Assembly: GCA_964016885.1 (NCBI GenBank)
Contig: OZ024740.1
Span: forward strand, 250,232,001-250,296,000
Length of the DNA stretch: 64,000 nucleotides
Direction: 5' to 3'
Origin: Eledone cirrhosa
Taxonomy: Eukaryota
Under the pieces are notes generated by a model. It did no database searches. It saw nothing but the letters and a program-made list of their open reading frames with translations, and had not been told where the DNA came from. This document shows positions 7,663 to 11,702 of this stretch, one piece after another; the stretch's first letter is position 1; every line of letters begins with the position of its first letter. The translations under genes were made by a program, and so were the position numbers.

Positions 7663-8905
7663 CATTATCATTATCATGATGATGATCATCATCATCATCA
7701 TATTACGTCCACTTTTCCTTGCTTGCAAGGGTGGGACAGGTCTTATTCAGCACAGCATCTCTCCACTTGTCACGGTCCTTTGTCATCTCCTCCGTGAGCT
7801 TCAGCAATCTGAGGTCTGCTCTCACCCCCTCTGCTCATGTTTTTTGTGGTCTTCCTCTATTGCGTCTTCCTTCTACTGGGATTTCCTGGGTCTTCTTCAC
7901 CCAGCGATCATTCTCCATGCACATCACATGTCCATACCAACGCAATCTTCTCTCCCGCACACTACAACTTATCCCTCTTATACACAGTTTCTCTCTCAAC
8001 TCATCCATGCTTGGTCGTTCATGACATTAACATTTCACATCCAACGGAGCATGCTTGCTTCATTTCTCTCCAATCATCGCATATCCTCTGCAGTTGCTGC
8101 CCATGTCTCACTACCATGCAGCATCACGCATCTCACACAGGCATCATAAAACCGGCCTTTCTTTTGCAGGGAGAAACCCTTCTTTATCAAAGGAGGAAGC
8201 ATCTCCCTAAACTTCTTCAAATCCACCCTTATTCTAGATACTATGGCCTCAGAGCAGTCTCCTCCTTTGCTAATCTGATCACCTAGGTATCGGAAGCTCT
8301 CAACCACCTCTATAGAGCCAACCTGCATTTAAAAAATGTGTCTATTACTGCAACTTCTGCTATCAAATTTTCCCGTACATCTACTGCATATGTAGTTTTC
8401 TCGATTTGTTAGTTTGCCTGCTATCCCACTACATCTCTTGTGTACCCAAGATCTGCATTGTGTACATTTTATAGAATTTATGCCAACTCCTTTTCTACCT
8501 ATTAAACATGACAATTTCCCTGATGGAATCAGAGTTTTGTCCTCTTTTCTATTTATCAACACTTTAGTTTTAGCTAGATTCACTCTCAGTCCTCTTGATT
8601 CCAACTGCTGTTTCCATAGCCAGAATTTATTCTCTAGCTCCTCTACTGATTTGCTATAAGAACCAGATCATCAGCATAGAGAAGTTCCCATGGGCAGCCA
8701 GTCTTAAACTCCTCTGTTAGGTCTTGGAGGACTATAATGAACAAGAGCGGGCTGAGGACCGAACTCTGATGTACTCCTACTGGTATCTGGAATTCCTCAC
8801 TAAACTCCATTTCTACTCTCACTTTACTGACAGCACCCCTGTACATAGCTTGCACTGTCTTCATCAACCATTCCTCTACACCTAGTTTCCTTAGGGACCT
8901 CCAGC
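7662..8905 (-). mobile_element. RTE-clade LINE 3' part (RT with PHD-like insert), (GAT)n tail, degraded
   Basis: GVHQSSVLSPLLF..LLYADDL (8643-8867), Cys cluster (8329-8604), FRYLG..LHGSETW (8074-8328). Confidence 0.9.
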
Positions 8906-9300
8906 CTACATTGTAAAGTGGTCATGATGGCGGCGGCAAAAAGCACCCAGCCCACATTGTAAAGTAGTTGTGTAGGTTTCATAGCAAAAAACACCCAGCC
9001 CACACTGTAAAGTGGTCGTGATGGCAACATTGCCAAAAAGCACCACACTCACACTGTAAAGTCACACTGTAAGTGTCATGACAAAACTCACACTGTAGGT
9101 GTCATGACAAAAAGCACCCAGCACACATTGTAAATGATGTTGGCATTAGGAAGGGCATCCAGCCGTAGAAACCAAACCATAAACAGTTCTTTGTGAACAA
9201 GACACTGTCACCTGACCAAACTTGCCTCAAATGGGACAACCCGTCTAACCCATGCTAGCATGGAAAAATGGACATTAAACTATGATGATGATGATGATGG
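8905..9300 (+). mobile_element. RTE-derived non-autonomous element with ~45-bp tandem subrepeats and (GAT)n tail
   Basis: repeated aaaagcacccagcccacactgtaaagtgg; gttggcattaggaagggcatccagc; ends ggacattaaactatgatgatg. Confidence 0.7.
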
Positions 9301-9304
9301 TGCT

Positions 9305-10109
9305 CTGTTTATAATGTGCCGAAACATCAATGACCTGTAGTAAACAGCTGACGAAGGGAAACTATCCCTCTCTTGTTTGTGTCGCCTTACCTTCTAACAC
9401 TTGTTATCAGTAACCACACAGCCTTGCCTTCCACAATCCATTTTTTGTATTTACTGCTGTGACCTCCGCTCCATCCTCTCTAACTATCTCGCTCGATTTG
9501 TTGTTCCTGGTCGGACTTATATGCCGCACGCTTTTGAATCAACTCCCTACCTTTCTCTCTATCGTTTTGGCTTGTTTGTCGATCCTGGTTGCACGTGCGT
9601 CATACACCCTTTTGGATTTAACTCCCTTTCCCTTCTCCCCCCCCCCTCTCTATCCCTCTTACTCACCCCCTCTGCCTTCTACCCCCTCTCACTTCGGTTC
9701 CTCCATCTTTCTCTCTCTCTGCACTCACTTCACTGAAAATACAAGCGGATTTACCTAGCTCCTCTGTTATTATGGCCCCCGGGCTTAAACCCAACGGCTT
9801 TTTTTAACTTGATCTATTTTCTCTTCGGTTACTCACCTACATGTGCCATTGTCCCATCTTCTATCGGCATATTTACTTTTTTTTTTTCCTTTTCTTTCTT
9901 TCTTTCTCCTCACTTCTTTCCCTCGTGGCTTTTTGATAGATAAAAGGCTATGGGCTCACTATGGATAAATGTTCTGTTTATAATGCACTGAAACATCCAT
10001 GACCCAAAGTAAACAGCTGACGAAGGGAAACTGTCCTCTCTTGTGTGTCTCGCCTTACCTTCTAACACTCGTTATCAGTAACCACACAGCCTCGCCTTCC
10101 TCAATCCAT
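9305..10109 (+). mobile_element. Non-coding element with 137-bp terminal direct repeats (unit 669 nt), retrozyme/pLTR-like
   Basis: 9305-9441 repeated at 9974-10109; contains CTGACGA..GAAAC. Confidence 0.75.
9963..10036 (+). ncRNA. Candidate type III hammerhead motif lacking helix II
   Basis: ggata-aat-GTT | ctgttta..taaacag CTGACGA agg GAAAC tgtcc; helix I 7 bp, helix III bulged. Confidence 0.45.
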
Positions 10110-10219
10110 ATAATATAATAAAGAGAGGAGAGCGGAACTGCATCCAGAATATATTTTTTATCCTGTTTGTAAAATAAGTTGGATTACTTTAAATAAATAA
10201 TTGTTCTACTTTAAATAAA

Positions 10220-10390
10220 TAATTGTTTCTACTTTAGGCACAAGGCCAGCAATTATCCAGTGCATAACTGGTACTTTATTTTATCGACCCCGTAAGGATG
10301 AAAGGCAAAGTCAACCTCGGCGGGATTTGAACTTAGATCGTAAAGGGACGTAACTATGCTGGAAAGCACGGCGTCCGACCTTCTACCGAT
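10220..10390 (-). mobile_element. tRNA-derived SINE (Deu/Nin-like), 5'-truncated
   Basis: same core as 5582 copy; TSD taaataaataat. Confidence 0.9.
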
Positions 10391-11397: not shown

Positions 11398-11702
11398 GTG
11401 AGCAAGACACTTTATTTCACATTGCTCCAGTTTACTCAGCTGTACAAATGAGATGATAGGGACCCCCAGTCCCTATCATCTCATTTGCAAAGTGGTCATG
11501 GAGGTGCCACAGCAAAAAAAGCGCCCAGCGCACACTGTAAAGTGGACGTGTAGGCGCCACGGAAAAAAAGCACCCAGCACTCACTGTAAATGAGGTTGGT
11601 ATTAGGAGGGGCATCCAGCTGTAGAAATCAAGCCAGAATCAGTTCCGTCCCACCCTTGCAAGCAGGGAAAAGTGGATGTAAAATGATGATGATGATGATG
11701 AT
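11398..11702 (+). mobile_element. SINE remnant with RTE-derived 3' part and (GAT)n tail
   Basis: gagcaagacactttatttcacattgctccag core; ggtattaggaggggcatccagc; ggatgtaaaatgatgatg. Confidence 0.7.

Follow-up and report, generated by a model that had tools for sequence, protein, structure and literature searches.

A decayed repeat copy in Eledone cirrhosa from a likely non-autonomous Penelope-like family with a predicted core-opened hammerhead ribozyme

The window analysed here, a stretch of 64,000 nt, is carried by a 443-Mb contig of the 3.0-Gb Eledone cirrhosa genome. It contains a direct repeat (9301/9305–9441 and 9970/9974–10109) that is 89% identical over ~140 nt with a period of 669 nt, confirming the terminal redundancy described in a sequence-only reading of this DNA. 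The motifs from which that reading had built a ribozyme were all located: GGATA at 9963, GTT at 9971–9973, ctgttta at 9974, taaacag at 10010–10016, CTGACGA at 10017–10023 and GAAAC at 10027–10031. A 17-nt core pattern matched twice in the window against a mean of 0.04 in shuffled sequence, which is above chance. The 669-nt unit is 69% pyrimidine, and its longest ATG frame spans 71 codons. No Pfam match was obtained for the unit in the three frames tested, and no Rfam match within the window at gathering thresholds. The features are as follows, with pairings and ribozyme parts as predicted.

9305–9441, + strand: 5' partial unit, pseudo-LTR-like, comprising the ribozyme 3' half and the element 3' tail
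9442–9916, + strand: body of the 669-nt unit, non-coding and pyrimidine-rich (from composition and no Pfam match)
9917–9923, + strand: P0 5' strand, predicted to pair with 10024–10030 and to close the whole ribozyme
9924–9952, + strand: P5 hairpin of 8–11 bp, predicted between P0 and G10.1
9953–9957, + strand: helix II strand starting with G10.1, GGCGC in most copies and decayed here
9960–9967, + strand: P4 5' strand, counterpart of the type-SGC/CSG stem I/II interaction helix
9968–9979, + strand: Block S, with the helix III 3' strand, U16.1 (9972), H17 (9973), the predicted cut (9973/9974) and a helix I strand
9985–9997, + strand: Block G, with a helix II strand (GCGCC in most copies, decayed in the window copy), GAAA (9990–9993) and the helix III strand CATC
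10001–10008, + strand: P4 3' strand
10011–10023, + strand: helix I strand AAACAG and the CUGACGA core
10024–10030, + strand: P0 3' strand AGGGAAA, which includes the GAAA of the earlier fold
10031–10109, + strand: element 3' tail ending at a TA-rich flank, placed from the 3' ends of relatives

Judged from its letters, the locus is a decayed copy of 1.2 units (one unit plus 136 nt). The 5' partial unit holds the helix I strand, a helix II strand, GAAA, a helix III strand and CUGANGA, and lacks everything 5' of the cut. The 3' copy keeps P0, P5 and helix I; it is probably inactive because helices II (3/5 pairs), III (4/5) and P4 (5/8) are eroded. The upstream copy had been proposed to start at the cut, give or take one nucleotide. 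It does start near the predicted cut, but the exact base is blurred: any position between −6 and +1 could be the junction, since the flanking (GAT)n tail shares microhomology with the element, its GGTGCT being identical at 4/6 positions to the family letters just 5' of the cut (GATGTT). A similar overlap of a (GAT)n tail with element letters was seen at the 5' junction of locus L002. Contigs from two runs of one sample were also inspected, one of which spans the 5' junction without differences; these contigs may not be independent of the assembly. One contig per run joins 9270 to 10110 and skips the element; its short side has only 21 letters and falls in a very common repeat, so that the join may come from an allele lacking the element or from a different SINE copy.

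A SINE-like repeat with a (GAT)n end is present three times in the window (8900–9298, 11485–11702 and 7681–7748), the first copy with internal 48-nt subrepeats at 8901–9108. The element sits directly behind one of these tails, as it also does at L002. We presume that these neighbouring tails resemble those of octopus SINEs. A different common repeat lies 3' of the element at 10130–10380 and recurs beside loci L153 and L170.

A family similarity search gave 60 matches from the 40 scored of 1334 candidates. Two ribozyme patterns had at least 769 and at least 927 exact genome matches, with 0 for the reversed controls. By these counts the window element is a member of a non-coding mobile repeat family with hundreds of genomic copies. 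Units are 669–817 nt long and 67–72% pyrimidine, with no reading frame common to the subfamilies. The earlier description of a retrozyme-like non-coding unit was borne out. Copies share common 3' ends, have scattered 5' ends and include many partial tandems or inverted pieces. The 3' ends of relatives cluster near +90–100 and +135–158 from the cut. Each subfamily shows two preferred 3' ends, at ~+90–105 and +135–158, followed by (TA)n (loci L037, L044, L031 and others); this doubling may possibly reflect the 30–40 nt "tail" of Penelope-like elements (PLEs). In subfamily B, (TA)n was present at 75/83 3' junctions and at 58/80 non-inverted 5' flanks, and 9/89 copies had inverted 5' pieces. A "PPGLN" stretch at 9737–9943, which we took to resemble the end of a GIY-YIG domain, was rejected as such, with no Pfam match in three frames and no frame kept across subfamilies.

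The family therefore shows traits of a non-autonomous PLE, namely a partial-tandem pseudo-LTR, 5' truncation, inverted 5' pieces and a microsatellite target. The same 5' truncation, partial tandems and inverted 5' pieces are described for PLEs, and (TA)n targets for the Naiad clade, by Craig et al. (2021, PMC8557442). Naiads differ in encoding an ORF with an N-terminal GIY-YIG, a CxC linker and a reverse transcriptase (RT), whereas the 0.67–0.8 kb unit found here has no ORF, as expected of a non-autonomous element. On sequence traits, the family is likely a non-autonomous Penelope-like (Naiad-type) retroelement. Two head-to-head inversions (L051:1351–1612 and L065:1462–1678) have their junction inside the ribozyme, at GGCGC/GCGCC or in the site region, which suggests fold-back priming on the self-complementary strands of the ribozyme.

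The sequence-only reading had folded the GAAAC at 10027–10031 into a type III hammerhead in which three nucleotides occupy the place of helix II. A second GAAAC, at 9990–9994 and again at 9321–9325, had been overlooked. An alignment of 37 copies places this upstream GAAA inside the loop of the earlier helix I, followed by CATC, which pairs with GATG-T before the cut. Each helix III pair made from the upstream GAAA was kept in 57–61 of 63 aligned copies, compared with 27 (A15.1–U16.1), 57, 11 and 14 of 63 for the pairs of the earlier fold. Among 186 copies selected for the upstream GAAA, this block had four contiguous helix III pairs in 140, whereas the downstream GAAA was present in 110 and had at most three, never four. 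Within the subfamily of the window, sampled by similarity only, the two were equally kept (28/37 upstream and 27/37 downstream), so rejection of the downstream GAAA draws on the other subfamilies. Since the upstream GAAA makes helix III across subfamilies, the strand order becomes site, GAAA, CUGANGA, which is that of type SGC. Helix I, the hammerhead core and the predicted cut after 9973 were upheld by the family comparison. In place of the helix-II-less core, the consensus has a helix II of 5 bp, with the G10.1 strand upstream of the site block and each position paired in 123–137 of 143 copies. This strand lies ~60 nt upstream and the bases following A9 pair with P0, splitting block C. The family is accordingly predicted, from pairing conserved among copies, to carry a hammerhead of order site-GAAA-CUGANGA whose chain is opened between A9 and G10.1. 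We discarded a type II fold built on a short CTGT/ACAG hairpin of the 5' copy: it would put A at position 16.1, and the family lacks this hairpin.

Support for the fold was quantified in a structure alignment of 63 copies, up to 14 per subfamily, chosen among the 143 whose 5' part is intact. Paired cells made up 88.6%, against 43–48% in slid controls. Two-sided changes occurred in 14/32 pairs, a count reached by 14/500 shuffles, and the covariation score was 0.172 compared with 0.108 after shuffling; these measures count sequences rather than events, so kinship inflates them and several switches are probably single events. Helix I was paired in 97.1% of cells, with two-sided changes in 3/5 pairs (C-G/U-A, U-A/A-U and U-A/A-U/C-G). 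In the 106 of 125 copies that have the site block, 576/636 helix I cells were paired, as opposed to 483 ± 9 with shuffled partners. Helices II and III were paired in 91% and 94% of cells, including A15.1–U16.1 and G10.1–C11.1. Helix III had two-sided changes in 0/5 pairs. As helices II and III are nearly invariant inside this family, their support comes from other families.

The additional helices were evaluated in the same way. The first P0 pair is A:U in 71, U:A in 61 and unpaired in 11 of 143 copies, a switch that is probably one event on the subfamily B branch. Overall, 768/1001 P0 cells were paired (669 ± 9 when shuffled), with two-sided changes in 4/6 pairs. P5 was paired in 85.5% of cells in the 63-copy alignment. 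P4 extends helix III and was left out of the 63-copy scoring because the aligner shifts it between subfamilies; its cognate duplexes reached −9.5 kcal/mol compared with −6.1 ± 0.3 kcal/mol for shuffled partners (94 copies). Nested minimum-energy folds recovered P0, P5 and, in some copies, P4/III, the pseudoknots being beyond such folds. Helices I, II and III were all perfect in 55/143 copies. H17 was C in 51, U in 10, A in 6 and G in 1 of 68 copies (non-G in 67/68), and U16.1 was present in 60/68. These 68 were taken from 95 copies sampled by a pattern blind to H17; the other 27 were dropped, their upstream part being truncated or diverged.

A search for helix III variants was unproductive overall, its 43 overlapping matches (11 in the control) being for the most part noise and decayed copies. 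Through it, a second family came to light (L170:1440–1620 and L273–L302), with a ~545-nt unit and 1648 search candidates, of which 30 loci were read. It has no BLAST similarity to the first family. The six-helix layout is identical and written in other letters: helix III of 8 bp, helix I of 7 bp, helix II of 5 bp, P4 of 5 bp, P5 of 8 bp and an inner P0 of 2 bp, each position being paired in 23–31 of 31 copies. H17 is A in 29 and G in 2 copies, giving a GUA cut triplet. By eye, the 3' ends of the published Naiad_Obim and Naiad_Ovul consensus sequences present a third letter set in an equal layout, and in Naiad_Esco the order site-GAAA-CUGAUGA is accompanied by helices I, III and P4. The helix letters of the first family differ from those of all three. 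No such motif was seen by eye in Naiad_Adux or Naiad-1_Skow. Craig et al. reported Naiads to have no canonical hammerhead, only an "HHR_half_core", a label given to Naiad_Ovul and Naiad_Esco (PMC8557442).

The site-GAAA-CUGANGA block order was named type SGC and validated in vitro by Eckert et al. (2023, PMC10085705), whose type-SGC and CSG examples derive from assembled metatranscriptomes; the family ribozyme, in contrast, lies in a chromosomal repeat. Besides this order, the family shares with type SGC (HRIMA-1 and variants) and CSG a 3–5 nt linker between helices I and II, a 5-bp helix II and an interaction helix of ~8 bp. By eye, helix and linker sizes match those of the validated ribozymes SGC-2 and CSG-1. 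Both P4 strands connect to helix III, by links that occur singly in SGC and CSG. What is new relative to SGC-2 and CSG-1 is the break between A9 and G10.1, where block C is split and two extra helices (P0 and P5) enter. Eckert et al. assumed at most 1–2 nt between CUGAnGA and its stems, and searched with the patterns CUGAUGAG or CUGAUGAUG with a linker of up to 15 nt; as given, these would miss the family copies. In the open-access papers and preprint main texts searched, including part of PMC3088659, type SGC was found in print only in Eckert et al., with none for animals or for the core-opened form.

Two further hammerhead systems are close in biology. Animal non-LTR retrozymes (Cervera and de la Pena 2020, PMC7229834; Li et al., bioRxiv 10.64898/2026.07.22.740005) are likewise non-coding units with one hammerhead each and GC below 50%, and a circular intermediate and a PLE origin have been proposed for them. 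They carry type I hammerheads, mostly in tandem repeats of 150–450 bp, whereas the units found here are 545–820 nt, are dispersed as ~0.1–1.5 units and have a non-circularly permuted hammerhead that is not type I. The minimal type I hammerheads of PLE pseudo-LTRs (Cervera and de la Pena 2014, PMC4209133) share the pseudo-LTR location, G10.1–C11.1 and an irregularity at the 9/10.1 step. This step holds one base in the PLE hammerheads and two helices in the family. The former act as dimers, their helix III being very short or absent (PMC4209133), in contrast to the 5–8 bp helix III of the family.

The position of element 5' ends bears on whether the predicted cut is used. Subfamily B was sampled with a 3'-tail pattern that excludes the ribozyme (304 matches; 90 loci among the first 100 listed; 89 junctions). 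In the interval from −5 to +21, 16 ends were found compared with 5.2 expected; this is the top-ranked 27-nt interval of the unit and was picked after inspection of the data. The interval set a priori, −5 to +15, held 11 ends (4.1 expected, P=0.004), and only 2 fell between −36 and −6. The predicted cut was crossed by 71/89 copies, and twice by 4 of them. The expected pile-up of 5' ends was hence seen as a roughly threefold enrichment, but without a sharp peak. The peak is broad and overlies a hairpin that could stall RT. With ends enriched about threefold and most copies nonetheless crossing, the cut behaves as an incomplete stop; templates that are mostly circles or uncut tandems, with a smaller share ending at the cut, would fit this.

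We consider it probable that the locus is a decayed copy of a non-autonomous Penelope-like family with a core-opened predicted hammerhead. We favour, by a modest degree of belief, a stronger proposal drawn from the same sequence comparisons: that the ribozyme is an active hammerhead with new wiring, non-circularly permuted and with its core opened by a two-helix module, that it is the missing Naiad ribozyme, and that retrozymes with circular RNA, present in hundreds to thousands of copies in this animal genome, are driven by it. It is unlikely, in our estimate, that the fold is real and is no longer, or never was, catalytic, serving instead as a signal for RT recognition or for processing in which hammerhead letters are retained. 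The large share of copies crossing the cut would suit such a signal, as would the weak in vitro activity that PLE hammerheads can have (PMC4209133). An opened core also has no precedent for activity in the literature consulted, adjacency of CUGAnGA to its stems having been assumed in PMC10085705. Against a mere signal, CUGANGA, GAAA, A15.1–U16.1, G10.1–C11.1 and a non-G H17 are kept across otherwise unrelated families, and an excess of 5' ends lies immediately 3' of the cut.

An improbable alternative is a plain type-SGC ribozyme with an unbroken block C, in which CUGANGA is followed by one bulged base and a GG that pairs with CC before GAAA to give a helix II of 1–2 bp, the upstream strand only extending or regulating it. 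GG does follow CUGANGA-N in all three letter sets, and PLE hammerheads (PMC4209133), like SGC-2, typically leave a base unpaired between 9 and 10.1. The base after A9 nevertheless covaries with the upstream P0 strand, and position 11.2 of the second family is G, so that GG could form only one pair there. The upstream strand, moreover, begins with G and pairs at all 5 positions in each letter set. The type III fold without helix II on the downstream GAAAC, perhaps dimeric, is very improbable: it shares helix I and the cut site with the core-opened model and uses a block as conserved in the window subfamily as the upstream one, but that GAAA is missing in 76/186 copies and its helix III pairs fail in most. 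The type III fold has an energy of −2.0 kcal/mol, whereas the optimal fold of these 74 nt reaches −7.5 kcal/mol; it also assigns no function to the conserved upstream GAAA block, and P0 already accounts for the downstream letters.

For the core-opened hammerhead, we propose the following route of mobilisation. Tandem transcripts would cut themselves after H17, with a fold that may form within a single molecule or as a swapped dimer. The cut-to-cut monomer would have ribozyme halves at both ends, which could hold these ends together and favour circularisation, and unit RNAs would be end-joined into circles, as for animal retrozymes (PMC7229834). A Penelope-type RT/GIY-YIG protein acting in trans would nick (TA)n DNA, trans copying by such a protein having been argued for retrozymes (Li et al., bioRxiv 10.64898/2026.07.22.740005). 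Copying would start ~140–155 nt 3' of the cut and then end early, halt at a cut end, or carry on around a circular or along an uncut tandem template. A second pass halted at the cut would be expected to leave a copy like that in the window. No autonomous Naiad was found in the genome with three exact patterns, and we therefore infer the partner; our best guess is a Naiad. Cephalopod Naiads are described as old remnants by Craig et al. (PMC8557442).

If this ribozyme cleaves, hammerheads in non-circular permutation would extend beyond environmental RNA and be frequent in animal chromosomes. CUGANGA and stem II would no longer need to adjoin, contrary to the rule, and search descriptors would account for the reported absence of canonical hammerheads from Naiads. 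The window copy itself is a decayed fossil. The natural variants provide ready compensatory sets for split-core folding and a route to the role of hammerheads in Penelope-like transposition.

Open frames adjoin family copies at L006:3–863, L017:2345–2809 and L024:69–686, none with a Pfam match. They resemble, as we presume, Penelope-type RT or GIY-YIG regions, and are probably other elements with shared (TA)n targets. Elsewhere in the window, 25080 (− strand) and 28930 (+ strand), ~3.8 kb apart, share a sequence of at least 85 nt without differences, which may point to a recent inverted duplication or to terminal inverted repeats.
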